The notes: generated from the sequence alone by a model not told the origin. 64,000 nt of DNA from Candidatus Gastranaerophilales bacterium (GCA_944324425.1 CALUWE010000006.1:39071-103070); one strand, 5' to 3'; positions 881 to 53,732 are shown, numbered from the stretch's first letter. Numbers and translations: made by a program.

Positions 881-907
881 GAACCCTAACCTAGGGTTCT
901 TTTTTTA
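881..907. terminator. rho-independent terminator (bidirectional-looking)
   Basis: gaaccctaacctagggttc hairpin with an A-run on the 5' side and a T-run on the 3' side. It sits between the first CDS (+) and tRNA-Asp (-). Confidence 0.8.
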
Positions 908-923
908 ATTTAATTTTATTTAG

Positions 924-1001
924 TGGCGGGGACGACGGGGATCGAACCCGCGACCTCATGCGTGACAGGCATGCGCTCTAACCAATCTGAGCTACGCCCC
1001 C
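924..1001 (-). tRNA. tRNA-Asp (anticodon GTC), CCA encoded
   Basis: Reverse complement is GGGGGCGTAGCTCAGATTGGTTAGAGCGCATGCCTGTCACGCATGAGGTCGCGGGTTCGATCCCCGTCGTCCCCGCCA. It has a 7-bp acceptor stem (one G-U), a GCTC/GAGC D-stem, a CATGC/GCATG anticodon stem with loop CTGTCAC, a GGTTCGATCC T-arm and discriminator G73. Confidence 0.93.
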
Positions 1002-1123
1002 AACTACTAAATTATTCAATTTTCAATTTCTACAAGTTATAGTTTATTTGAGTTGGTACACTTACCGCAAGGCTTGTTCCCAACACATTTAATCATATTA
1101 TAAAAATTTTAATTTGCAATAAA

Positions 1124-1378
1124 CTATTTAGCGTATACACTAACTTGTTTTCTGTTTCTTCTGTGAGGTTCAAATTTAACCACACCGTCAATAAGTGCAA
1201 ATAATGTGTCATCTGAACCAATGCCTACATTATTTCCGGGGTGAACTTTTGTTCCTCTTTGTCTTACTAAAATATTACCTGCAAGAACTTCTTCGCCGCC
1301 GAATTTTTTAACACCAAGACGCTTGCTTTCGGAATCTCTACCGTTTTTGGTTGAACCTAGTCCCTTCTTATGTGCCAT
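1124..1378 (-). CDS. rpmA: 50S ribosomal protein L27
   Basis: [24 protein letters not shown]...[11 protein letters not shown] is a canonical L27. There is no Firmicute-type N-terminal propeptide. Confidence 0.97.
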
Positions 1379-1740
1379 TATTCTTCTCCTGCTTCATTTG
1401 TTGTATCACTTGCAGCTTTTTTAGAAGCTTTTGAGTTAATTTTATTAATCATAACTCTTGTAAATTGTTGTCTGTGGCCTTGTTTTTTTCTGTAACCTTT
1501 TTTAGGGCGTTGTTTGAAAACAATGATTTTTTTAGCTTTATCATGTTTAACAATTGTGCCTTCAACAGTTGCAGCTTCAACATAAGGTGTGCCAACTTTT
1601 GATTTTTTACCGTTTACAAGCATAACAACCTTATCGAAAACAACTTTTTCATCTACATCGTTATGTAATAATTCGATGTCAACGTATCTGCCTTCTTCGA
1701 GTTTGTATTGTTTGCCGCCGGTTTCTACGATAGCATACAT
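1378..1740 (-). CDS. rplU: 50S ribosomal protein L21
   Basis: [17 protein letters not shown] is a canonical L21 N-terminus. Its stop overlaps the rpmA start. Confidence 0.97.
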
Positions 1741-1764
1741 TTTATATTGTCCTTTCTGTTAAGG

Positions 1765-1798
1765 GACCGTAGCATTAAATCTGCATTTAGACACGGTC
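1765..1798 (-). promoter_or_regulatory. structured 5' leader hairpin of rplU-rpmA
   Basis: gaccgt...acggtc closing stem with further internal pairing, lying between the predicted -10 box and the rplU RBS (gaaaggac). Confidence 0.45.
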
Positions 1799-1818
1799 AG
1801 CCTCTCTTACGATTTATA

Positions 1819-1847
1819 ACTATAAAATGAACAAGGGCCATTGTCAA
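1819..1847 (-). promoter_or_regulatory. sigma70-type promoter of rplU-rpmA
   Basis: On the minus strand: TTGACA (1847-1842), a 17-nt spacer, then TATAGT (1824-1819). Confidence 0.6.
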
Positions 1848-1866
1848 CCGATTTTATAGTTTTTTG

Positions 1867-3246
1867 TTAAAAAAGGTATTTTGACAAAGCATTTTTATCA
1901 AAAAATTCAATTTCGTCTTTGTTATGAATAAATAAAAGGCAGGTTATAACAGATTTAAACATTGAAAATTCAGGGTATGAAAACTTTCTTCTTAATTCAT
2001 CCATATTATCTGCTAAAAATTCCGTTATAAGAGTTTTATTCTTCAAAGTTAAGGATGTGAAAAAATCCAGCCCTTCTTTGGTTGCAATACCCTCAAAATA
2101 AACAATATCCGGCGATTGAAATTCAATATATCTCATGGCCTTATCTAAATTAAAACCGACAGATTCATTTAATTCAGACTGAATAACGTTTTTCAATTTA
2201 TATTTTGCAATACTCTCTAATGTCATTGCTGTTTTATTTTTGGGTATTAATTCATCCAAAATTGAGTAAACAAGATGCGTTTTACCTGAAAGTGAGCTTC
2301 CGCAAACAAGAACAACTCCGGGGGTTAAAAGTGCATTTTTTAATTTTGAAATCGTGTCTTCATCCTTAATTAATTCCATTAATTTTTTTGGCGGATGATA
2401 AATTTTTAATAAAATCCTCTCGCCTGAAATTGTTGGGTATGCTGAAATGCTTGCGGTTAAACTGATATTATCGACATTAAAAGTTAATTTCCCAAGCTGC
2501 GGAATTTCAGATATTGTTGGGTCAAGTGCGCATAATGACTTCAGCATTTGAATAAAAGGGCTTATTAAAAGCGAAGGGATTGAGCCTGTTGAATAAGCTT
2601 CATCCTGCTTTTTAAAATATACCGTTAGAGAATCTGTCAGGTGTTCAAAATATAATTCATGGATATTTTCTTTTATTGCCTGCTTTAAAATACCCCTGAA
2701 TAAATTTTGAAGATGCTCTTCAGATAAATCTTCATTATGAAGTTCATCAATCCACCTGAAATTATCCTCTTTTTCAGTTACAATATCTTGAACCTTGCCT
2801 TTAAGATCATAATATTCATTGATTTTTTTCAAAATTGTATTTAAAGACCCCAAAACAGGTTCAATTGTTTTTCCCGTTCTTTCAATAATTTTATCTATTG
2901 CAAACAAATCCAAAGGGTCTGCCATAATAACGGTTAAAGTATCTTCAATTTGAAATAGAGGCAGCATTTTATAGGTTATTGCCTCTTTATAGCTGATAAA
3001 TTGAAGACATTTTTTATCAATTTCATAATCATCCAAATTAACGTACGGAATATGAAGCTTTTCTTCCAAAAATTTTAAAAGTTCAGCTTCCGTGATTAAT
3101 GAAGAATTAATTAAAACCTGCCCCAGATTTGTGTTTTGGGCATTTGCAATTTCTTGGGCACGTTCAATATCTTCAAAAGTTATGATATTATTTCGAACCA
3201 AGTCATATTTTAACTTATCTATGGTTTTATTTGTAACTAAATCCAT
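1867..3246 (-). CDS. GspE/PilB-family-derived P-loop protein with a T2SS-E N-terminal (MshEN-like) domain and degenerate ATPase signature motifs
   Basis: The N-terminus (NLGQVLINSSLITEAELLKFLEEK...YKMLPLFQIEDTLTVIMADPLDLFAIDKI) matches the GSPII_E N-domain. Walker A is GSSLSGKT and the SPDIVYFEG segment is Walker-B-like. Asp-box and His-box residues are not recognisable. Confidence 0.7.
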   Translation of the reverse strand: MDLVTNKTIDKLKYDLVRNNIITFEDIERAQEIANAQNTNLGQVLINSSLITEAELLKFLEEKLHIPYVNLDDYEIDKKCLQFISYKEAITYKMLPLFQIEDTLTVIMADPLDLFAIDKIIERTGKTIEPVLGSLNTILKKINEYYDLKGKVQDIVTEKEDNFRWIDELHNEDLSEEHLQNLFRGILKQAIKENIHELYFEHLTDSLTVYFKKQDEAYSTGSIPSLLISPFIQMLKSLCALDPTISEIPQLGKLTFNVDNISLTASISAYPTISGERILLKIYHPPKKLMELIKDEDTISKLKNALLTPGVVLVCGSSLSGKTHLVYSILDELIPKNKTAMTLESIAKYKLKNVIQSELNESVGFNLDKAMRYIEFQSPDIVYFEGIATKEGLDFFTSLTLKNKTLITEFLADNMDELRRKFSYPEFSMFKSVITCLLFIHNKDEIEFFDKNALSKYLF

Positions 3247-3249
3247 AAT

Positions 3250-3618
3250 TTATGCCTCAAGATATTTACGAACGCTTTTCAAAACTTCTTCAAATTCAAA
3301 AGGTTTTGTAATATATTCATTTGCGCCCGTTTCTTCACCTATTAATTTATCAGAATCTTGTCCGCGCGCAGTTACCATAACAATCGGAATGTGCTTATAT
3401 TTGTTGTCATACTTTAAAAGACGGGCAATTTTATAGCCGTTAATTTTTGGCATCATAACATCCAAAATAATTAAGTCGGGATTTTCTTCCTTTGCACATT
3501 TTAAACCCTCTTCTCCGTCATTTGCCGTCAAAACATCATAGCCTGTTGCCTTCAGCATAAAAGAAAGGGTCTCTGTTATATCTTTTTCATCATCTACGAC
3601 AAGAATTTTTTTCTGCAT
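3250..3618 (-). CDS. single-domain CheY-like response regulator
   Basis: Receiver residues are canonical: VVDDE, DLIILDVMMP, VMVTA and YITKPF. It lies 3 nt upstream of the GspE-like gene. Confidence 0.9.
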   Translation of the reverse strand: MQKKILVVDDEKDITETLSFMLKATGYDVLTANDGEEGLKCAKEENPDLIILDVMMPKINGYKIARLLKYDNKYKHIPIVMVTARGQDSDKLIGEETGANEYITKPFEFEEVLKSVRKYLEA

Positions 3619-3648
3619 AAATCACTTCCTAACTATAAACGGCAATAT

Positions 3649-5604
3649 TCAGGCATCTTTTTTATAAAATGCCTTTGATAATACTATATCACAACTTTTA
3701 AGGTTTATTTCATCTTCAATTTTTGAAACCATAAAATCAAATGCGCTTCTGTCTAACCCTTGCATATAAACCTGAGTTACATATTTATCGTTCTTTCGTT
3801 CCAAAAATTCTTTTGAAGTTTTTGTAAGCTTGATTATATTTGAATTTTTAAGATGGTTATAAAATTCAAAATCACTGTTTTCAATGATTTTTAAATATCC
3901 GGTAGATTCCGCTTCGTTTCTGATTTTTAAATTTAGTTCAGCCCTGAAAGCCTTTTCATCACTATAAGCCGGTATTATGAAATTAAAAGTTGAACCTTCA
4001 TTTTTAACGGAATCAACCCAGATTCCGCCCAAATGAGCATCAATAAAATGTTTTGTAATTGTAAGCCCAAGGCCTATGCCGCCCGTGTTTCTTGATAGAG
4101 TATTTTCAATTTGAGAAAATTTATCAAATATTTTTGGTATATCTTCTTTTTCAATGCCAACCCCCGTATCTTGAACGGAAATTTTAACGTATGCACCTGA
4201 ATACTCACCGTCTGAAGGTGTTATCAAAAGGCTCTTATCAGGGTTTTCAATTATGCCTGTTGAAATTCTTATTTTGCCGCCATCAGGGGTAAATTTAATC
4301 GCATTTGTTATAAGATTTGATATAATCTGATCAATTCTGTGCTGGTCAATATAAACATCAGGCAGATTTACATTGTTTTCCAAATTAAATTCAATATTTT
4401 TTTGTGCGGCCTGATTTTTAAAAGTATTATATGCAAGTTCAATTGAAGGCAAAAGCGAAGCTTTTGTAAATTTAAAATCAAACTTTCCTGTCTGCATTCT
4501 TGATAAATCCAACAAATCTTCAATAATGCCTGATAGCCTTGAAACATTTCTTTTTGCAATATTAGCAAAATTTTTGTTGACATCGCCGATAGCCCCGCCC
4601 TGTTCCGATAAAATTATACTTAAAGCATTATTAATAGGGGTCAATGGCGTTCTTAATTCATGAGATACAATTGAAACAAATTCAGATTTCATTCTTTCTA
4701 ATTTTTTCAATTGAATATTAGCATTTATTATATCCTCATATAAAATAGCGCTTCTTAACGGTGCCAAAATTTGATGAATTATGGATTGAAAACAGGTTAC
4801 ATCTTCTTTTGTAAATTTGTTTTTTCTGAATATTTCAATAACGCCTTCAAACTTATCTTTAATAACAATAGGTGCAATTAAAGAATCGTATTCATTAAAA
4901 GAATCGTCAAAATATTCATTTTTATATGAAGGCTTAACATTTTGAATTGTTTCAACCTCAAACCTCGATAATTTAAGGCTTGTAATCCCCACATCTTTTG
5001 CACCCAAAGAAAGCCTTTTAATCAAATTGGAATTAAATTCTTCCGTTGTTTTTTTAAGGGAATTTATATAAAACTTTAACTTATCCTCTTTAAGGTTATC
5101 CCAAAAAAGGGCTGTTGCCGTATCATAGCTTAAAATTCTCTCCAAGCTTTCAAAAGCGACTTCATAAAGTTTTTCTTTTTCCAAAGTGCCTGCAAATTTT
5201 GAACTTGCGTTATAGAATGCATCTATTTGGTACAAATTCTTTTTTAATTCCATATTTTCTTTATAAAGATTAATGAAATTTTGTTTATTTAAAACCGCCA
5301 AATTTATTTCATTTTTCAAAATTTCCGAATTAACCGGCTTTAAAAAAGTTTTAACAGGGGTTTTAATTTCATCTTTATTGTAAGTTTCCGTTATGTAAAA
5401 AATTTCAAATGTTTTATTTGTATTTTTAGCTAAAAGCTCAATTAAAATTGAGGCTGAATTTTCAATCGAAGAATCCAAAATAACGATATCCGACTCAAAA
5501 TTCAAAATATCGTCATACAAAGCTTCATAAAAACCGTTCGCTGTTTTTAAGCTGTATTCCTCTAAATTATATTTTTCGTTTGAAATTACAAATATATTTG
5601 TCAT
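3649..5604 (-). CDS. sensor histidine kinase (pseudo-receiver, coiled coil, GAF-like, HisKA, HATPase, plus a ~105-aa C-terminal extension)
   Basis: H-box SHELRTPLTPI, N-box ISNLITNAIKFT, G-boxes QDTGVGI and GGIGLGL. The N-terminal receiver-like fold lacks the acidic DD pair (VISNE). I place the start at ATG 5604; the in-frame TTG at 5613 is the alternative. Confidence 0.85.
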   Translation of the reverse strand: MTNIFVISNEKYNLEEYSLKTANGFYEALYDDILNFESDIVILDSSIENSASILIELLAKNTNKTFEIFYITETYNKDEIKTPVKTFLKPVNSEILKNEINLAVLNKQNFINLYKENMELKKNLYQIDAFYNASSKFAGTLEKEKLYEVAFESLERILSYDTATALFWDNLKEDKLKFYINSLKKTTEEFNSNLIKRLSLGAKDVGITSLKLSRFEVETIQNVKPSYKNEYFDDSFNEYDSLIAPIVIKDKFEGVIEIFRKNKFTKEDVTCFQSIIHQILAPLRSAILYEDIINANIQLKKLERMKSEFVSIVSHELRTPLTPINNALSIILSEQGGAIGDVNKNFANIAKRNVSRLSGIIEDLLDLSRMQTGKFDFKFTKASLLPSIELAYNTFKNQAAQKNIEFNLENNVNLPDVYIDQHRIDQIISNLITNAIKFTPDGGKIRISTGIIENPDKSLLITPSDGEYSGAYVKISVQDTGVGIEKEDIPKIFDKFSQIENTLSRNTGGIGLGLTITKHFIDAHLGGIWVDSVKNEGSTFNFIIPAYSDEKAFRAELNLKIRNEAESTGYLKIIENSDFEFYNHLKNSNIIKLTKTSKEFLERKNDKYVTQVYMQGLDRSAFDFMVSKIEDEINLKSCDIVLSKAFYKKDA

Positions 5605-5728
5605 AACAGGCAATATGATAGCAAATTAAAGGAAATGTGTCATAAATTTAACAAATATACAAGTTTTTTAAAGTTTTTAACCTTATCGTCGATATAAATT
5701 TTAAGGAAGGCAAGTTTTTGTATTAAAA

Positions 5729-8700
5729 ATGGAAATTAAAGGCAGCTACATTAATTTTAACAACGATGACAATTCAAGGGTAAGAAAAAACCCCGAACCT
5801 TCACCTGCGCCAAAACAAGATGAGAAAAAAACTCCCGAAAAAGAAACTCCCGTTAATCCCGAATATTGGCAAAACAGAGTAGGAATTTCGTTTGGAAACA
5901 AAAAAGAAGCTTCTGAAGAAAAAAATTATACAGATGCTCTTGAAGAACTTTTTGACAAAACACCTTTAGACAGCAGCTTTTCCTACCGGCTGTCAAATGC
6001 TGGCGCAAAAAAGCTTTATGAACTCATTCAAAAAGGAACATTTACACCCGAAGGAATAGCTGCACTCTCAAACAAGCTGAGTATATATACTGCCGAAGAC
6101 AGGGACGCCATCGAACCTCTTGTTGCCGCAGTATATGATATTTGCGCAAAAGAAAACAATGAAGCTGAAAACAATGCAAATGCCGAATATATTACAAATT
6201 TAGCTTCGCCGTTTTTATCGGTACGAAGAATAACGCCCAAAAATTTTATAGCCGCAATAAAAGATTTTACCCCGTTTGAAAGAACAGCAGCGGAATTTTT
6301 TGCGCAAAAAGGCAAAGAAGCTAATGAGTCCGCATTTGCCGAATTGGGCGATTTTAAAAAAACTGTTGCAAGTTTGGATGAAAATAATTTTGAAAGTTAC
6401 AAAACATCATTTGCTAAAAGAGGTGAAGGTTCAAGCCTTTGTGATGCAACATATATGATGAGTTGTTTCGTAAACCCGAAAACCAAAAAATATGATTCTT
6501 TAATAGAAGAAAAGACAAAAGAATTTGAAGCAAAAAGGCAAAGCCTTGATTATATGAACCGCTTCTTCGGACACTCAGAAGTTAAAACAGCTAAAATTGT
6601 AAGAGCCATGGTCGATTTACAAACCGGACAAATAAGCGAAAAAGCCGTTAATTTTACAAACGACTATTTATTTGGCGATAAAGTTGAAACGGAAGATAAC
6701 AAGTTTGTTGCATTTATAAAAAATCTGCGCTCCAAAAGATACATTTTTGCACCGCCATATTATAAAGACTCGTACTCAATGCGTGAAAACTTTGCAGATT
6801 TACTTGACGACATTAAAGATAACACAGGCGCTTTTAACGATACAAACATAAAATATATGTCCAAGTTCCTTGAATCTAAATCAGGCTGGGGCGGCTTCAG
6901 CGATGAATTAAACTTTTTTAAATTCCTTAAAGACGAAAACGGCGTAGCTGAAAGAGGCAAATTTGCTTTTGCACAAAAAATTCTTGATGAAACAAACGAC
7001 ATGAAAAAAACAGGCGAAATTGTGCAAATTTATGCAACCATCGGAAAGAAAAACTTTGACAGCATCTATAAATTCCTAAGAAAAATGTACGACAAAGAAG
7101 ATAGAAACATTTATCAAAATCTTGCCGTAATTGCAAAAAATTGTTTTGATGACAAAGGGAAACCGATAGAAGACAAAATTGAGCTTATCAGAGAATTAAC
7201 AAACGATTTTTCATATGCCGTTAATTTTACCGATCCAATGTTTGAAGCAATGGAAAATGAATATTGCAAAAAAATACTTTTATCCATTAAAGACAGACCG
7301 GGATTTTCCGGATATGATATTTTGGGGCTTTCAAACTTAAAACAAGAGCATTGCGATAAAAACGGCGAAATTACACCCCATGCAAAAGAAAAACTTGAAG
7401 AGTTCCTAAAAACCGGAATTACTCTCGGCAGGCTTCCTTTATTGTATAATTCCTGCTTTAGCAAAAACGAAAACGGCGAGCAAGAATTTGATGAAAAGGG
7501 TTTTCAAAATATATTGGATTTAATTTCATTCAAAACAGACGAATGCAAAAGATTCGGAAAAGTGCTCCTGTCAAGAATGAATAGCGAAGTTTTTATTGAC
7601 ATTGCAAAAAACAGTTTAAATGTTAATACAATGAAATTCAAAAGCAAAATAACTTTGTACGAAGAGCTTAAAAAACTCAATTTTGATAATATAGGTGAAA
7701 ACGATCCGATTGCGGCAAATTTGAAAAAATTATTCTATGAAATTGATGCAAGCTTAACTGCAGATTCGCATTCTCTGCCTGTCGACAGAAAATATATCGA
7801 ACAATTTGCACACAACATTTTCTCTATCGCTAAAAACGGAGAATACAGTGATTTTGAAGCAACCTTAAAAGATTCCATATCAAAATTGGAAAAAATGGAA
7901 AACGGTCTTCCATTAAGCTACTCAAGAGAAGATTTTCTTTCTGATTTGTCTCAGCTTTTAGATAGCGAAGAAAAAATTAAAGCTGTTGAAAACAAAACAG
8001 AGGTAAGTTTTAACTATGAAAAAAACGGCAGCGAAATAAACATTTTAGGATACGAAGGTATTTTAACACCGGATAAATTAGACAGAAGTGATAAATTTGA
8101 AAATGAAATCTACGGCCTTTGCCACAATTTTATGTATAACAACAGCGTAAATACAGGTGATAAAAAACTGGACGAACAGCTGAATTCAATAATAAAAGCG
8201 GCGCCCGAATTTATAAATACAATAGGAAAAAAACAGCATGGAACCCACAAACACACCTTGGATATTCACCAGCTGCTTGTACTTGCCAGATCAATAGACA
8301 ATCCCGACTATTTGAAATTAGATGACTTAGATAAGGCAATGCTCAAAATAACCGCTCTGTTTCACGATATAGCAAAACAGGAAGGAGTTGTTGATAAAGG
8401 CCACCAAGAACCCTCCGCACTATATTCAAGGGGTATTGTCAGGAAATTCATAAAAAATCCTGAAACAGTCGAAAGAATTTATGAATTAATAAAAAATCAC
8501 CATTGGACAGAAGAATATGCCAATGCGGCGGACAGAGAAGAAGCCGCAAAAGCCATAGCGTTTAAATTTCGCCGTCCGAACGACTTTGAAATTGCAAAAA
8601 TAATCGCAAGGTCAGATTTAATGTCTGTTAATGACGAATTTTACGAGCCGCGCAAAGACATCTTAACAGAAGACAAATTGCTGCCCATTGAAGAAAAATT

Positions 8701-42461: not shown

Positions 42462-43769
42462 TTAAAAACGATTCAAAAACTTATCTATTGTATTAATTAA
42501 GGTTTTTATACTATACGGCTTCGGAAGATAAAAATCCGCACCTTTAGATAAAATGGTTTTTTTGTCTAAAATATTTGTTGAAAAAATAATTGTCGGCATT
42601 TTTTCTTTTCTTCTTCGATAAATTTCTTTCGCCGTATCAAGAGCCATCAGCCCTTCTTTTTCATTTTCCGTTCCCCAATCCAAAATAATTAAATCGGGTA
42701 AGTAGTCAACAAGACAATCGGTAAAATTTTCATATTTATCGCATATTTTAGTTGAATAGCCGTTTATTATGCAATTTGTTTCAATCAAAAGTCCCAAGGC
42801 TTCGTCTTTTTCCATAATTAAAATTTTGTTTTTTTGAATATCGTCAACCGAGCCGTATAACTTGGGCCTGTCTACTATATAAGTTGATTTTTCGGCATTT
42901 TTTAGAGGTTTTATTAAATTGAAAAGATTTTGAATTATTTCATACGAATTTTTATGCAGTATGGAATTATACTCAATAACAGCTTCTGAAATTTTCATTA
43001 AAGAAACCTTTTCTTCTTCTTTTGAATTCGATGAATTTATTGTAAATTTGTTCGAATAATCAAATTCCGTATAAAACCTGTTTAGAATATTATCAAACGC
43101 AAAAGCGAAAAATTCGGCCAATTTTTCAGCTTTAACAGGGCTTGTAACAACCAAAAACTCATTTTGACTCCAATGCCCGACCGTATCTTCTTTTGTAACC
43201 GCAGAAGATATTATTGCCCCTATTGTCTGCAAAACCTTTTCTGAAGCAATTTCACCGTATATTTCTCTGTAATTGTTAATACCGTCCAGTGAAACTAAGA
43301 TTGCGGAAAATGTTTTATTCCGCTTTATTATTCTGTTCAAATTTTTTCTTGTTAATTTTTCGTTCAAAAAACCTGTAAGCGGGTTAATCAAGCTTTCAAT
43401 ATGCCTTCTGATATGGGCATTTATTCTTGCTTGAAATTCCTTATTCGGCATTGATTCAGACAGGAAATCGTCGGCACCGGCATTTAAAAGCTCAAGCTTA
43501 TCCGATAATTCATCCGATTTTGAAACCGCAATAATAGAAGGTCTGAAATTATAGGTTAAAATTCGAACCTTTTTGATAAATTCTTTTATATTTTCTTCAA
43601 TTGTGTCTGAAATTATAATAAATTCAAACTCATTGTTTCTGATTTCGCCTATTGCATCCGATAAATTGTTAACAAGAACAACATCTGCCATTAATAATTT
43701 AAGAATTTTTTTATAACGAACCGCAAGCTCGCGTCTTTTGCTTATAATAAGCACGGAAGGATTATACAT
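42462..43769 (-). CDS. response-regulator-like protein: atypical REC, degenerate GGDEF domain, C-terminal REC
   Basis: The GGDEF-fold region begins PLTGFLN, but the active-site motif reads HWSQNEF instead of GGDEF/GGEEF. The C-terminal receiver has DLIILDW, IIFST and YLPKP. Confidence 0.75.
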   Translation of the reverse strand: MYNPSVLIISKRRELAVRYKKILKLLMADVVLVNNLSDAIGEIRNNEFEFIIISDTIEENIKEFIKKVRILTYNFRPSIIAVSKSDELSDKLELLNAGADDFLSESMPNKEFQARINAHIRRHIESLINPLTGFLNEKLTRKNLNRIIKRNKTFSAILVSLDGINNYREIYGEIASEKVLQTIGAIISSAVTKEDTVGHWSQNEFLVVTSPVKAEKLAEFFAFAFDNILNRFYTEFDYSNKFTINSSNSKEEEKVSLMKISEAVIEYNSILHKNSYEIIQNLFNLIKPLKNAEKSTYIVDRPKLYGSVDDIQKNKILIMEKDEALGLLIETNCIINGYSTKICDKYENFTDCLVDYLPDLIILDWGTENEKEGLMALDTAKEIYRRRKEKMPTIIFSTNILDKKTILSKGADFYLPKPYSIKTLINTIDKFLNRF

Positions 43770-44499
43770 TCTTCACCCCTTCCGTTTTTATGGCGCTTAA
43801 TTTTGTAAAATCTTCCAAAACAAAAACGGGAAAACCGATGAGAAATTCAACGCTTTTTTCTTTTTCATTGCACTTCACTTCAATTTCACCGTTCATTTTT
43901 AAAACCAAATTTTTAACAATAAAAAGCCCTAAGCCGGATCCTTGTGTTTTTGAAGTTAGGTAAGTTTGGGTTCTGTAAAATTTATCAAAAATTTTTTCTT
44001 TTTCACTCTCTTCTATAATTTCACCGTAATTTTTTACGGAAATATAATTCTTTCCGCCCTTAATATAGGTTTTAATTTCTGCAACATTTGAACCGTTTGA
44101 GTATTTACAGGCGTTATCCAAAATGTTTATAAAAATTTGCTCCAGAGCATCTTTATCCAAACTTGAAAATAAAGAAGGGGAAAGATTTTTTTTAAAAATA
44201 AAATCTTTGTAATTAACTTTAACAACATCAATTGACTTTAACAAAATTTCATTTATATCTGTTTTTTTAAACACCAAATTGTTATATTCAACGTCGCTGT
44301 CCGCAGCATTCAGCGCATTTTCAACAAGGTTTATAAGCCTTATTGACTGTTCTTTTATAATATTTAAAAATTTCTTTTTTTGTTCATCATTTAATTTATC
44401 ATAAGAACCCAAAATGGTTTCCGCAAACCCCTTTATGCTTGTTAAGGGGGTTCTTATCTCATGGTTTATTGTAGATAAAAATTCTTTTTTATTATCCAT
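43762..44499 (-). CDS. soluble histidine kinase core (HisKA and HATPase only)
   Basis: H-box INHEIRTPLTSIKGF, N-box ILDNACKYS and G2 box GSGLGL. There is no TM segment or sensor domain. It overlaps the downstream regulator gene by 8 nt. Confidence 0.85.
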   Translation of the reverse strand: MDNKKEFLSTINHEIRTPLTSIKGFAETILGSYDKLNDEQKKKFLNIIKEQSIRLINLVENALNAADSDVEYNNLVFKKTDINEILLKSIDVVKVNYKDFIFKKNLSPSLFSSLDKDALEQIFINILDNACKYSNGSNVAEIKTYIKGGKNYISVKNYGEIIEESEKEKIFDKFYRTQTYLTSKTQGSGLGLFIVKNLVLKMNGEIEVKCNEKEKSVEFLIGFPVFVLEDFTKLSAIKTEGVKNV

Positions 44500-50780: not shown

Positions 50781-53732
50781 ATGAATAAGGTAGCAAAAAC
50801 ACTGCCTTTAATTATTTCTTTCGGCTGTTTTAACGTATTGCCGGCCGTTGCCGAAATAAACAAGGCATACAATCTTATTGAAGCGGAAAACAAAACGGAT
50901 GACACAATTACAAAGTACACCTACAATTGGGAAACAAACACTTTTGACCCAAAATATTACAATTTGGAGATAAATCCGACAGAATACGGGAATATTAATT
51001 CGTATGATGACATAAAATATTATACTTATGATTCATATGGCAAAATCACGGAAGGTAATAAAGAAAATGCTGTTTTTAAATATTATGTTGACAGCACGAG
51101 GCTTGCAGACTCTCAAATATATATAGATGAAAACAGCCTTATAAAAAATATTGATAAAGATTTCACAGGCTTTACAACAACTGCAATAGATTTTAGTAGC
51201 TTATATTTAGACAGCCTTGACAGTGTAACCGGAAATTTTTACAACAACACAACAACAAACGGCGAAGCAATCCTGAGCGACAGAGGCAGAATTACAAGCA
51301 TTTCAGGCAATTTTATAAACAATAGAAATAACTCAGGCTCAGGCGGCGCCCTGAAAGCATACGGTGCAGATTATATTGAAGGAACCTTTATTGGCAACAG
51401 TGCTTATCTGAGCGGGGGCGCTATATATGCAAATAATGCTTTTTTAAATACAATTGAAGCAAACTTTATTTCAAATAAAGCAGGTTACAATGGCGGTGCC
51501 ATATACAAAAAAGCGAATATGACAAGCATAAAAGGTGATTTCATAGGTAACTCCGCAGCGGTTTCGGGCGGGGCAATTTACAACATACCCTATGGAACCA
51601 GTCTCGAAAGGCTCGAGGGAGATTTCATAAAAAATACAGCGGGGACTTCAGGCGGAGCAATTTACAGTTCAGACCAAATACACAACATAAAAGGTGATTT
51701 TATAAGCAATTCTGCTGACGGCATAATGGACACAAAAGGCGGAGCTGTTTATCAAGCAGAAAATTCGGGCTATGGAATGTATTTTGTAAATTCATCATTC
51801 ATTGAAAACTATGCAAAAAGCTTAAATGGCGAAGCAAAAGGCGGCGCTATATATGCCCATGGCAAAGTAAATATTACTGCTCAAGATGGTCATACTTCAT
51901 TAATTAAAGGAAACTACACGGAATCAGGCGGCATAAAAGATGATAATGCAATATATATGGCTTTTGGCAAAAATATGGAATTACAAGATACAACATATTC
52001 AAACGATGGCAATACACAATATGCTACTTATGCTGCCGAACATCCAAGCTTAAATCTAAATGCTATTGACGGCGGCAATATTGTCATTGAAGATAAAATC
52101 AATGGCAACAAAGGCGGCGATATCATCACAATAACTTATGAATATGAAAACGGTAAATGGGTGGAAAAATCACAAACAAGCGTGAAAGACACGGGGTACA
52201 GTATTAACGTAAACGGCGATAAAACAGGTGCTGTTGTTTTTAACAACAGAGTTGATGGCGGTGCCGATATGAAATTGAGTGATACAAATCTTGTTTTAGG
52301 CAAAAACGATACCGTTTTATCAGGAAACGACATGACATTTACTTCCGGCAACTTTGTTATGACAAATAATTCCGTCGGAAATACAAATTTTAACAATTTC
52401 ACATTAACCGGAACTACAACAACATCAGCCGATGTTGACCTTTATAATGCCAAAATGGACAGAATTACCGCACAAAATTACAACATTATGGGTGATAGTT
52501 TTCTTGAAGTAAACGGATTAAACCTGCTAAATGATGCCAAAGAAGATAAAACGGTTATTTTATATGCTGACAAAGAGCTTGCAAACAATGTAAAATACAC
52601 AGGCGCAAACCCTGTTGCATATTCTCCTTTGTGGAAATATGACGTATCATATGCAACCCATGACGACGATTTGGGCTATTTTACATTTTCAAGAGGCTCA
52701 GACACAAACAACTATGAAAACTTTAACCCAAGCGCCCTTCCTGCAGTAATTTCAACAAACGCAGGCGGCTATACAACACAAATGCAAGTGTTTGAATATG
52801 CATTTAAACATTCAGACGCCTTTATGGCACTTCCTGCATTTGAAAGAATGGCAGTCATAAACGGCGACAAATATGCTTTGGCAAATTCCTCAGATACAAC
52901 CGATGTAGGGTATTTTTCACCCCTTATGACACAATATGACACAAGAGGAATTTGGTTAAAACCGTATTCTTCATTTGAAAATATTCCTTTAAAAAACGGC
53001 CCTAAAGTTTCTAACATAAGTTACGGTACTTTAGTTGGTTATGATACAAACTTAAAGCGTTTCAGAAACGGTTTTTCGGGCGTATTGACCGGATATTTGG
53101 GGTATAACGGCGCAAGCCAAAGATATTCAGGCATTGACACATATCAAAATGGCGGCCTTGTTGGCTTAACCGGTACTTTATATAAAGGTAACTTCTTCAA
53201 CGCAACAACAATATCGGCAGGCGCAACGGTCGGTTCATCAGACACAATGTATGGTCATGAAGATTACACAATGTTTATGTCCGGTATCGGTAACAAATTC
53301 GGTTATGACTTTGAATTTAAAGACGGCAAATTTATTTTCCAGCCTTCATTATTCTTAGCATATACATTTGTTAACACCTTTGACTATACAAACGCAGCAG
53401 GTTTAAAAATAGAGTCAGACCCATTGCATGCCATTCAAATTGCACCCGGTGTTAAATTCTTTATGAATACAAAAAACGGCTGGCAGCCTTATTTAAGAGC
53501 AGATATGGTTTGGAATCTGCTTGATAAAAATAAAGTAACCGCAGGTGATGTAAGACTTCCTGAAATGAGCATAAAGCCTTATGTTCAATATGGTGTCGGC
53601 GTTCAAAAAACATTCAAAAATGATACATTAACTTTCTTTGGCCAAACATTAATTCAAAATGGCGGCAGAAACGGCGTTTCACTGAATGCAGGCTTAAGAT
53701 GGGCAATCGGTAAAATAAAAAACAGAAGCTAA
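50781..53732 (+). CDS. Pmp-repeat (polymorphic outer membrane protein-type) autotransporter
   Basis: Signal peptide MNKVAKTLPLIISFGCFNVLPAVA. Seven consecutive FxxN...GGA(I/L/V) pairs between about nt 51231 and 51861. The C-terminal ~280 aa are rich in alternating aromatic beta-strand patterns, ending ...GVSLNAGLRW-AIGKIKNRS. Confidence 0.8.
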   Translation: MNKVAKTLPLIISFGCFNVLPAVAEINKAYNLIEAENKTDDTITKYTYNWETNTFDPKYYNLEINPTEYGNINSYDDIKYYTYDSYGKITEGNKENAVFKYYVDSTRLADSQIYIDENSLIKNIDKDFTGFTTTAIDFSSLYLDSLDSVTGNFYNNTTTNGEAILSDRGRITSISGNFINNRNNSGSGGALKAYGADYIEGTFIGNSAYLSGGAIYANNAFLNTIEANFISNKAGYNGGAIYKKANMTSIKGDFIGNSAAVSGGAIYNIPYGTSLERLEGDFIKNTAGTSGGAIYSSDQIHNIKGDFISNSADGIMDTKGGAVYQAENSGYGMYFVNSSFIENYAKSLNGEAKGGAIYAHGKVNITAQDGHTSLIKGNYTESGGIKDDNAIYMAFGKNMELQDTTYSNDGNTQYATYAAEHPSLNLNAIDGGNIVIEDKINGNKGGDIITITYEYENGKWVEKSQTSVKDTGYSINVNGDKTGAVVFNNRVDGGADMKLSDTNLVLGKNDTVLSGNDMTFTSGNFVMTNNSVGNTNFNNFTLTGTTTTSADVDLYNAKMDRITAQNYNIMGDSFLEVNGLNLLNDAKEDKTVILYADKELANNVKYTGANPVAYSPLWKYDVSYATHDDDLGYFTFSRGSDTNNYENFNPSALPAVISTNAGGYTTQMQVFEYAFKHSDAFMALPAFERMAVINGDKYALANSSDTTDVGYFSPLMTQYDTRGIWLKPYSSFENIPLKNGPKVSNISYGTLVGYDTNLKRFRNGFSGVLTGYLGYNGASQRYSGIDTYQNGGLVGLTGTLYKGNFFNATTISAGATVGSSDTMYGHEDYTMFMSGIGNKFGYDFEFKDGKFIFQPSLFLAYTFVNTFDYTNAAGLKIESDPLHAIQIAPGVKFFMNTKNGWQPYLRADMVWNLLDKNKVTAGDVRLPEMSIKPYVQYGVGVQKTFKNDTLTFFGQTLIQNGGRNGVSLNAGLRWAIGKIKNRS

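Follow-up and report, generated by a model that had tools for sequence, protein, structure and literature searches.

A conserved Melainabacteria cassette of a sensor histidine kinase, a stand-alone receiver and a shortened PilB-derived protein

Action of a receiver on a PilB-type ATPase is known in principle, and the regulators described so far are the nearest counterparts of the three-gene cassette analysed here. The cassette lies on the minus strand of a 64-kb stretch of DNA from Candidatus Gastranaerophilales bacterium (CALUWE010000006.1:39071-103070; the whole stretch is called the window below) and encodes a soluble sensor histidine kinase, a stand-alone receiver and a shortened protein derived from PilB/GspE ATPases, referred to as the GspE-like protein. 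In Xanthomonas campestris, the output-less receiver protein DrdR binds both PilB and PilT (PMC13507683). The likeness to the cassette lies in a regulator without an output domain and in direct contact with PilB-type ATPases. However, DrdR is an orphan with tandem receiver (REC) domains, has no adjacent kinase and targets active PilB and PilT, whereas the cassette combines a single REC, a dedicated kinase and an apparently motor-dead PilB paralogue. In Synechocystis, the PatA-type regulators PixE, PixG and LsiR bind PilB1 and PilC (bioRxiv 10.1101/2021.06.11.447907; PMC11181946). They too come from Cyanobacteria in the broad sense, and they bind the pilus extension motor, but that system is PATAN-mediated, uses the CheA-like kinase PixL with a photoreceptor and acts on an active PilB1, while no PATAN domain is present in the cassette.

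Two further comparisons concern the domains involved. The protein P0171 is a natural REC-MshEN-T2SSE fusion, with the same domain pair that the cassette encodes in its adjacent receiver and GspE-like genes; this uncharacterised fusion differs in being a full-length ATPase with all motifs (T2SSE profile positions 5-369 of 370), and its receiver is 33% identical to that of the window. SgmT-DigR of Myxococcus xanthus includes a cytoplasmic kinase with GAF, kinase core, receiver and degenerate GGDEF domains and is linked to type IV pilus-dependent behaviour (PMC3509222). In contrast to the cassette, DigR binds DNA, the domain order is different, and the GGDEF I-site of SgmT binds cyclic di-GMP (c-di-GMP); the cassette kinase bears only a weak relationship to GGDEF, and its I-site is missing in most cases. 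Because DrdR and PixE act on pilus motors and REC-PilB fusions exist, we regard the cassette as a variant and not as a new category. What is new is that a pseudo-PilB is combined with a stand-alone receiver and a kinase of its own in a conserved Melainabacteria unit that is unlinked to pilus ATPase genes. The initial annotation could not equate the arrangement with a characterised system, and none equivalent to it was found in the literature searched. We propose that the kinase signals through the output-less receiver to the PilB-derived protein, with a protein-protein output and a pilus-type target, and we assign this reading a probability of about 0.5.

The window is AT-rich (approximately 32% GC), and its closest named relatives are Candidatus Galligastranaerophilus and other Gastranaerophilales (Melainabacteria/Vampirovibrionia). 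The gene order on the minus strand is kinase (5604..3649), receiver (3618..3250) and GspE-like gene (3246..1867), and the three open reading frames (ORFs) share a single common reading frame. Ten codons separate the kinase stop codon TGA from the ATG of the receiver, and one codon separates the receiver stop codon TAA from the ATG of the GspE-like gene. Purine runs resembling ribosome-binding sites are located ahead of the receiver start (AGGAAG) and the GspE-like start (GAGG). The ORF calls bear out the description in the initial annotation of three genes on one strand with gaps of 30 and 3 nt. Its statement that internal terminators are absent is also in agreement with our scan, in which zero terminator-like sites or hairpins were found in 900..5900, compared with 2.9 in shuffled sequence. 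A promoter-like -35/-10 site was located 5' of the kinase gene (5615..5643, minus strand; ATGACA, 17-nt spacer, TG, TATCAT) and scored 10/12 in the consensus scan; it is only suggestive, as the number of such sites equals the shuffle expectation. All three cassette proteins are predicted to be cytoplasmic, with no hydrophobic stretch of membrane-spanning length. Two database proteins of 784 aa (P0414 and P0419) were considered as true kinase-receiver fusions and rejected, since they correspond to read-through of the kinase TGA; they probably arise from gene calling with a genetic code in which TGA is a sense codon, rather than from real read-through.

Conservation of the cassette was assessed at 53 Gastranaerophilales loci, which were obtained by scanning a single genome for each GTDB species and by two contig look-ups, and, with 80 metagenome loci added, over approximately 140 loci; the metagenome relatives are all at least 56% identical. 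The order kinase, receiver and GspE-like gene on one strand was found at 53/53 GTDB species loci, at which the identities were 32-86%, 62-94% and 53-98%, respectively. The receiver is located directly upstream of the GspE-like gene at 129/129 testable loci, the receiver stop and the GspE-like start being a median of 6 nt apart, and the kinase is adjacent at 112 of 118 loci. Synteny in relatives, on which the initial annotation had made its proposal depend, was therefore observed down to 32% identity. In a representative-level search, short family members were recovered down to 32% identity and were followed by ordinary full-length PilBs. The distant members (32-43% identical) with a readable contig all carry the cassette (L055-L061, L142, L144 and L145), and every named family member belongs to Melainabacteria (Vampirovibrionia). 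The flanks of the window, namely the L21/L27 genes and the gene for a 1260-aa HD protein, are not conserved across the 53 loci. On this evidence from sequence and gene order, the cassette is a self-contained and vertically inherited signalling unit. A phage, plasmid or other mobile origin was considered and is not suggested, as the neighbours are housekeeping genes and GC content is even.

In one small exception lineage (L095 and L108), two genes without an assigned role lie between the kinase and the receiver. At L095 (5697..7477), these inserted minus-strand genes encode proteins of 293 and 269 aa with no Pfam match. The kinases of L095 and L108 are without the C-terminal domain, and a second kinase, of HAMP-PAS type, is encoded 3' of the GspE-like gene. 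Several public metagenome-assembled genomes with the cassette have the title 'uncultured Gammaproteobacteria' or 'Muribaculaceae', and a single protein bears the name 'Clostridium sp. CAG:967' (records of L009, L019-L021 and L043); these labels are probably taxonomic mislabels.

Among the three genes, conservation is highest for the receiver, followed by the GspE-like gene and then the kinase, and this ranking fits an interacting pair with a variable sensor. A shared function of the receiver and the GspE-like protein is suggested by their invariable adjacency and short median gap, which persist at 32% identity and in many rearranged neighbourhoods. The same observations argue against a purely historical adjacency, in which the kinase and receiver would act elsewhere, for example on a flagellar motor, and the role of the GspE-like protein would be unrelated. 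Single-domain receivers frequently have distant targets, which speaks for such an arrangement, as does a gene for a methyl-accepting chemotaxis protein (MCP) directly 3' of the cassette in L144. Furthermore, some Gastranaerophilales have flagellar and chemotaxis genes (PMC5877343). Taking both sides together, we consider a historical adjacency very unlikely.

The receiver gene (3250..3618, minus strand) encodes a protein of 122 aa without an output domain. Response_reg was matched at residues 5-116 with an E-value of 2e-29, and no second Pfam domain was found. The phosphorylation pocket is intact, with D9, D10, D53, T83, Y102 and K105 conserved across all aligned orthologues, so the initial annotation was right in describing a single-domain receiver with all canonical residues. 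Its term 'CheY-like' holds for the single-domain architecture but not for the relationship. The best NCBIfam similarities are to the receivers of PhoB, PleD and DivK. In place of the CheA-type kinase and chemotaxis context of CheY proper, the partner is a HisKA kinase, and no che genes are present in the window.

The GspE-like gene (1867..3246, minus strand) encodes a protein of 459 aa that is shortened and probably hydrolysis-dead. In the Pfam search, MshEN was matched at 5.3e-18 and T2SSE at 1.8e-18, the latter covering only profile positions 5-216 of 370. In a phmmer search against the PDB, Geobacter PilB (5tsg/6olj) was matched at 8e-42, with the alignment ending at residue 391. The AlphaFold2 (AF2) model has a pLDDT of 84.4 and contains the N2 and RecA-like folds of the family, and Foldseek returned GspE 4pht at 3.5e-24 and PilB 5tsh with a TM score of 0.48 and a root-mean-square deviation of 4.1 Å over 270 columns. 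The equivalog models for PilB (TIGR02538) and GspE (TIGR02533) gave 153.1 and 102.2 bits, below their cut-offs of 675.65 and 630.25, respectively. In public databases, family members are variously annotated as PilB, TadA, type II secretion system (T2SS) protein E or hypothetical protein.

Degeneration is concentrated in the shortened RecA-like C-terminal domain (1870..2376, minus strand), as seen by alignment with canonical PilBs. The P-loop GSSLSGKT (residues 316-323; 2278..2301, minus strand) agrees with GxxxxGK[ST], a consensus found in 239 of the 251 family members; the other 12, from several deep lineages, have lost it and still carry the cassette. At the Asp box, TLESIAK is found in place of TxEDPVE, with E344 remaining. 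At Walker B, DIVYFEGIAT is found in place of DIIMVGEIRD, so that DxxxxGE(I/M)RD is lost and E385 remains. Both glutamates are invariant in 251/251 members. The His box and the Cys4 zinc-binding C-terminal subdomain are absent from the window protein, which ends approximately 100 residues early, and the His box, GE(I/M)RD and the zinc subdomain are missing in all members. The label 'degenerate GspE-like' given in the initial annotation was thus well chosen, given the partial T2SSE match and the loss of Walker B, the His box and the zinc subdomain. A pseudogene or a gene in decay was ruled out by the ratio of nonsynonymous to synonymous substitution (dN/dS), which is 0.02-0.11 in N1, N2, the degenerate C-terminal domain and the tail, indicating strong purifying selection; the least saturated pair gave ω = 0.028 at dS = 0.63. 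We conclude from its sequence that the protein is a true PilB homologue or paralogue that cannot be a canonical motor.

Alternatively, the protein could still work as a minimal ATPase motor, serving a pilus-like, competence or secretion machine, with the receiver tuning its activity as in REC-PilB fusions. The widely kept P-loop, the two invariant glutamates (E344 in the Asp box and E385 by the Walker B strand), the confidently modelled RecA-like core and the strong selection over the C-terminal domain are all consistent with such a motor. Nevertheless, the uniform loss of the His box, GE(I/M)RD and the zinc subdomain, the end of T2SSE coverage at position 216 of 370 and the retention of the cassette by the 12 deep-lineage members without a P-loop make a working motor improbable.

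Conservation within the GspE-like protein is highest in the N1/MshEN-like domain (residues 1-150; 2797..3246, minus strand), which contains the family motif NKTxxKLKYDLVR and in which the invariant columns of the family alignment are concentrated. MshEN (PF05157) was matched at residues 65-149 with 65.2 bits against a cut-off of 23.1, and MshE 5htl at 8.7e-10. The MshEN domains of MshE, PilF and PilB2 are homologous, with a four-helix bundle and an alpha/beta subdomain, and likewise form a regulatory N1 (PMC11731258). Binding of c-di-GMP follows a consensus of two 24-residue motifs, (R/K/L)LGxx[LVI][LVI]xxG[LVI][LVI]xxxxLxxxLxxQ (PMC11731258). Compared with those proteins, the cassette protein fails motif I at G3, G10, L21 and Q24 and motif II at position 1, G10 and Q24, and has the KLKYDLVR motif instead. 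None of the 251 members has G at motif position G3 or Q at Q24; nearly all have K13 for G3, A34 and K63 for Q24, and N40 for position 1 of motif II. In addition, the c-di-GMP motif model NF053729 (NCBIfam) gave 33.1 bits, under its cut-off of 38. Binding of c-di-GMP by the GspE-like protein is doubtful because the consensus positions are replaced across the family.

The kinase gene (3649..5604, minus strand) encodes a soluble sensor histidine kinase of 651 aa. The longest ORF extends to a TTG at 5613; the start was placed at the ATG at 5604 because homologues begin there ('MTNI...'), and 3649..5604 is therefore correct. HisKA was matched at residues 305-373 (2.8e-16) and HATPase_c at residues 420-546 (3.2e-25). 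The catalytic core is complete, with H, N, G1, F and G2 boxes all present (H box SHELRTPL at 314, G1 at 479, F at 493 and G2 at 508). A transmembrane helix is not predicted, as the highest hydropathy value is only 1.39. Alignment with distant orthologues showed a degenerate receiver-like domain at the N-terminus (approximately residues 1-105; 5290..5604, minus strand), in which the acidic pair DD is changed to SN and the D, T and K positions are retained. The distant orthologues match Pfam Response_reg here with E-values of 1.7e-13 to 3.6e-05, and the window copy has no Pfam match to a receiver in this region. A block conserved in all orthologues follows (approximately residues 125-290; 4735..5232, minus strand) and is tentatively regarded as a putative GAF-like sensor. 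GAF (PF01590) is annotated on two kinase homologues, P0524 and P0529, and was not detected in the window copy.

The last approximately 100 residues of the kinase (3652..3960, minus strand) form a ferredoxin-like domain according to an AF2 model of the window fragment made with the use of database homologues (pLDDT 81; alpha-beta-alpha-beta-beta-alpha-beta). Foldseek matched this tail to generic ferredoxin folds only, with no match to GGDEF. In the deep lineages the tails end in 'GIAxYPEDAxxSEELL', and a profile of these tails against the PDB gave diguanylate cyclases as 7 of the 8 best matches, all of them weak (E 0.05-0.8). Pfam GGDEF gave nothing in the tail at E <= 1, hhalign against a single GGDEF protein gave no match, and the GG[DE]EF signature is absent, the positions reading QDNNM, ANENK and similar. 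An RxxD I-site occurs in two lineages only. The tail is probably a degenerate GGDEF remnant, an identification that we keep as a lead.

These relationships of N1 and of the kinase tail bear on whether the GspE-like protein could be an input or accessory third component instead of the output. As such it would report nucleotide, c-di-GMP or the state of a pilus machine to the kinase, or it would sequester the receiver, which in turn would be a phosphate sink or act on another target. The descent of N1 from a c-di-GMP-binding module and the apparent GGDEF ancestry of the kinase tail are compatible with this, and c-di-GMP serves as the input to SgmT, a kinase that combines GAF and degenerate GGDEF domains (PMC3509222). 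A related observation comes from L142, where an apparently active GGDEF protein is encoded directly 3' of the cassette: this predicted membrane-anchored protein (L142:2372-3517, plus strand) has GGEEI at the GG[DE]EF position, and its gene starts 4 nt after that of P0134, the full-length (564 aa) and equally motif-degenerate GspE-like protein of this locus. P0134 itself resembles an intermediate stage in the evolution of the short family from PilB. On the other side, key positions of the c-di-GMP motif are replaced in all 251 members, the motif model stays under its cut-off, and the I-site is restricted to two lineages; the order of the genes and the tight coupling of the receiver to the GspE-like gene also suit an output better. 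We therefore consider an input or accessory role unlikely.

A number of observations weigh against the proposed pathway to a pilus-type target, beginning with the genomic surroundings. No pilin, secretin, platform or second PilB/PilT genes were found in the 64-kb window; the initial annotation had noted the same for nearby pilin, secretin and platform genes. The statement does not extend to some distant relatives: L055 has a prepilin peptidase gene ahead of smc, isolated prepilin-type genes occur at two distant loci and include a convergent one 3' of the cassette in the ACD20 genome (L145), and the MCP gene of L144 was mentioned above. Across approximately 145 loci, no canonical PilB-type ATPase gene was found within ±8 kb of the cassette, and the cassette is never beside a canonical PilB/PilT/PilC cluster. 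In five deep lineages (L055, L056, L057, L061 and L145), the cassette is directly preceded by smc-scpA-scpB, encoded on the same strand, with DUF2806 and GIY-YIG genes inserted between scpA and scpB in L145. The adjacent kinase is missing at L128, L131, L133 and L136, where the receiver-GspE-like pair is kept. In Synechocystis it is the PATAN domain and not REC that contacts PilB1, and CheY-type regulators do not interact (bioRxiv 10.1101/2021.06.11.447907). Finally, some residual ATPase activity of the GspE-like protein is possible, given the P-loop and the two invariant glutamates.

The linkage to smc raises the question of whether the cassette governs chromosome organisation, segregation or the cell cycle, with the PilB-derived protein as a pilus-independent effector. 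Besides the five lineages with smc-scpA-scpB upstream, one of which (L055) continues with dnaN-recF-dciA-dprA-topA, this idea draws on sepF, located 7 kb from the cassette in the window, and on the lack of linked pilus ATPase genes at any locus. However, the smc linkage is missing from all of the approximately 118 gut Gastranaerophilales loci and also from L058 and L144, and gene order kept within a deep clade need not mirror function. Furthermore, no PilB-type protein is known to us to act on SMC. We thus see only a slim chance that the cassette controls the chromosome. The ancestral site after smc-scpA-scpB and the absence of canonical pilus ATPase linkage nevertheless suggest a broader idea, that a PilB-derived pseudo-ATPase serves as a pilus-independent effector and would represent a new class of response-regulator output (chromosome condensation, segregation or division); this we regard as quite unlikely.

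Returning to a pilus-type target, we propose the following pathway. The kinase would read an intracellular cue via the GAF-like region, the degenerate receiver and the GGDEF-derived tail, and would phosphorylate the receiver. The phosphorylated receiver would then bind the PilB-derived protein encoded by the adjoining cistron, most likely at the conserved N1 domain. Both of these steps are fairly likely. The PilB-derived protein would be unable to power pilus extension and might act as a nucleotide-binding adaptor or switch, a role that is the most plausible because the motor motifs are gone. Its most plausible action would be docking on the partners of the real PilB (the PilM/PilC platform or the PilB hexamer), which could switch on or off the assembly of type IV or competence pili whose genes lie elsewhere in the genome. 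The adaptor function and the docking are guesses based on ancestry. In agreement with the pathway, P0171 joins a receiver to MshEN and T2SSE domains in a single natural protein, DrdR and the PatA-type regulators are further precedents, and a Gastranaerophilus genome encodes pilA, pilB, pilC, pilT and pilD (PMC5877343). The prepilin-type, prepilin peptidase and MCP genes near the cassette at some distant loci also hint at pili or taxis. Overall, we infer the phosphotransfer, the binding of the receiver to the GspE-like protein and the final target, as well as the position of the GspE-like protein as the output rather than as an accessory or input component. The phosphorelay suggested in the initial annotation is in this sense partly supported.

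Several other features of the window were recorded. The rplU-rpmA genes lie 3' of the GspE-like gene on the same strand, with no terminator-like site between. They probably have their own promoter despite the lack of a terminator after the cassette, because a near-consensus promoter-like site (1819..1847, minus strand; TTGACA, 17-nt spacer, TATAGT; 11/12) is present in the 126-nt spacer before rplU-rpmA. On the other side of the cassette, a divergent gene (5729..9511, plus strand) encodes the 1260-aa HD protein, whose sole Pfam match is a weak one to HD at residues 853-936, under the cut-off, and which was found in the closest relatives only (48-57% identity; L005 and L052). A second two-component pair is encoded at 42462..44499 (minus strand), consisting of a minimal HisKA/HATPase_c kinase of 245 aa (43762..44499) and a protein of 435 aa with a partial GGDEF and a C-terminal receiver (42462..43769). 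From this pair, with its partial GGDEF, the genome appears to encode signalling proteins of the c-di-GMP type. Two large ORFs (16989..20468 and 50781..53732, both plus strand) encode proteins of 1159 and 983 aa, respectively, with no Pfam match. A DUF520 gene (56135..56635, minus strand) is located near an NAD kinase gene and a gene for a 543-aa SMC_N/AAA_23 protein (53729..55360, minus strand), which is probably RecN.

Melainabacteria, non-photosynthetic relatives of Cyanobacteria, are uncultured and frequent inhabitants of animal guts, and their signalling is almost uncharted. The cassette is among the most stably conserved regulatory units of this group. The family of GspE-like proteins merits its own annotation, and metabolic or motility reconstructions of these genomes should not deduce a working pilus ATPase from its presence. 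Should the motor-dead PilB paralogue prove to be switched by the receiver, control of type IV pilus-type machines would gain a pseudo-enzyme layer, and the cassette would constitute a simple, testable two-component pathway with a purely protein-protein output.

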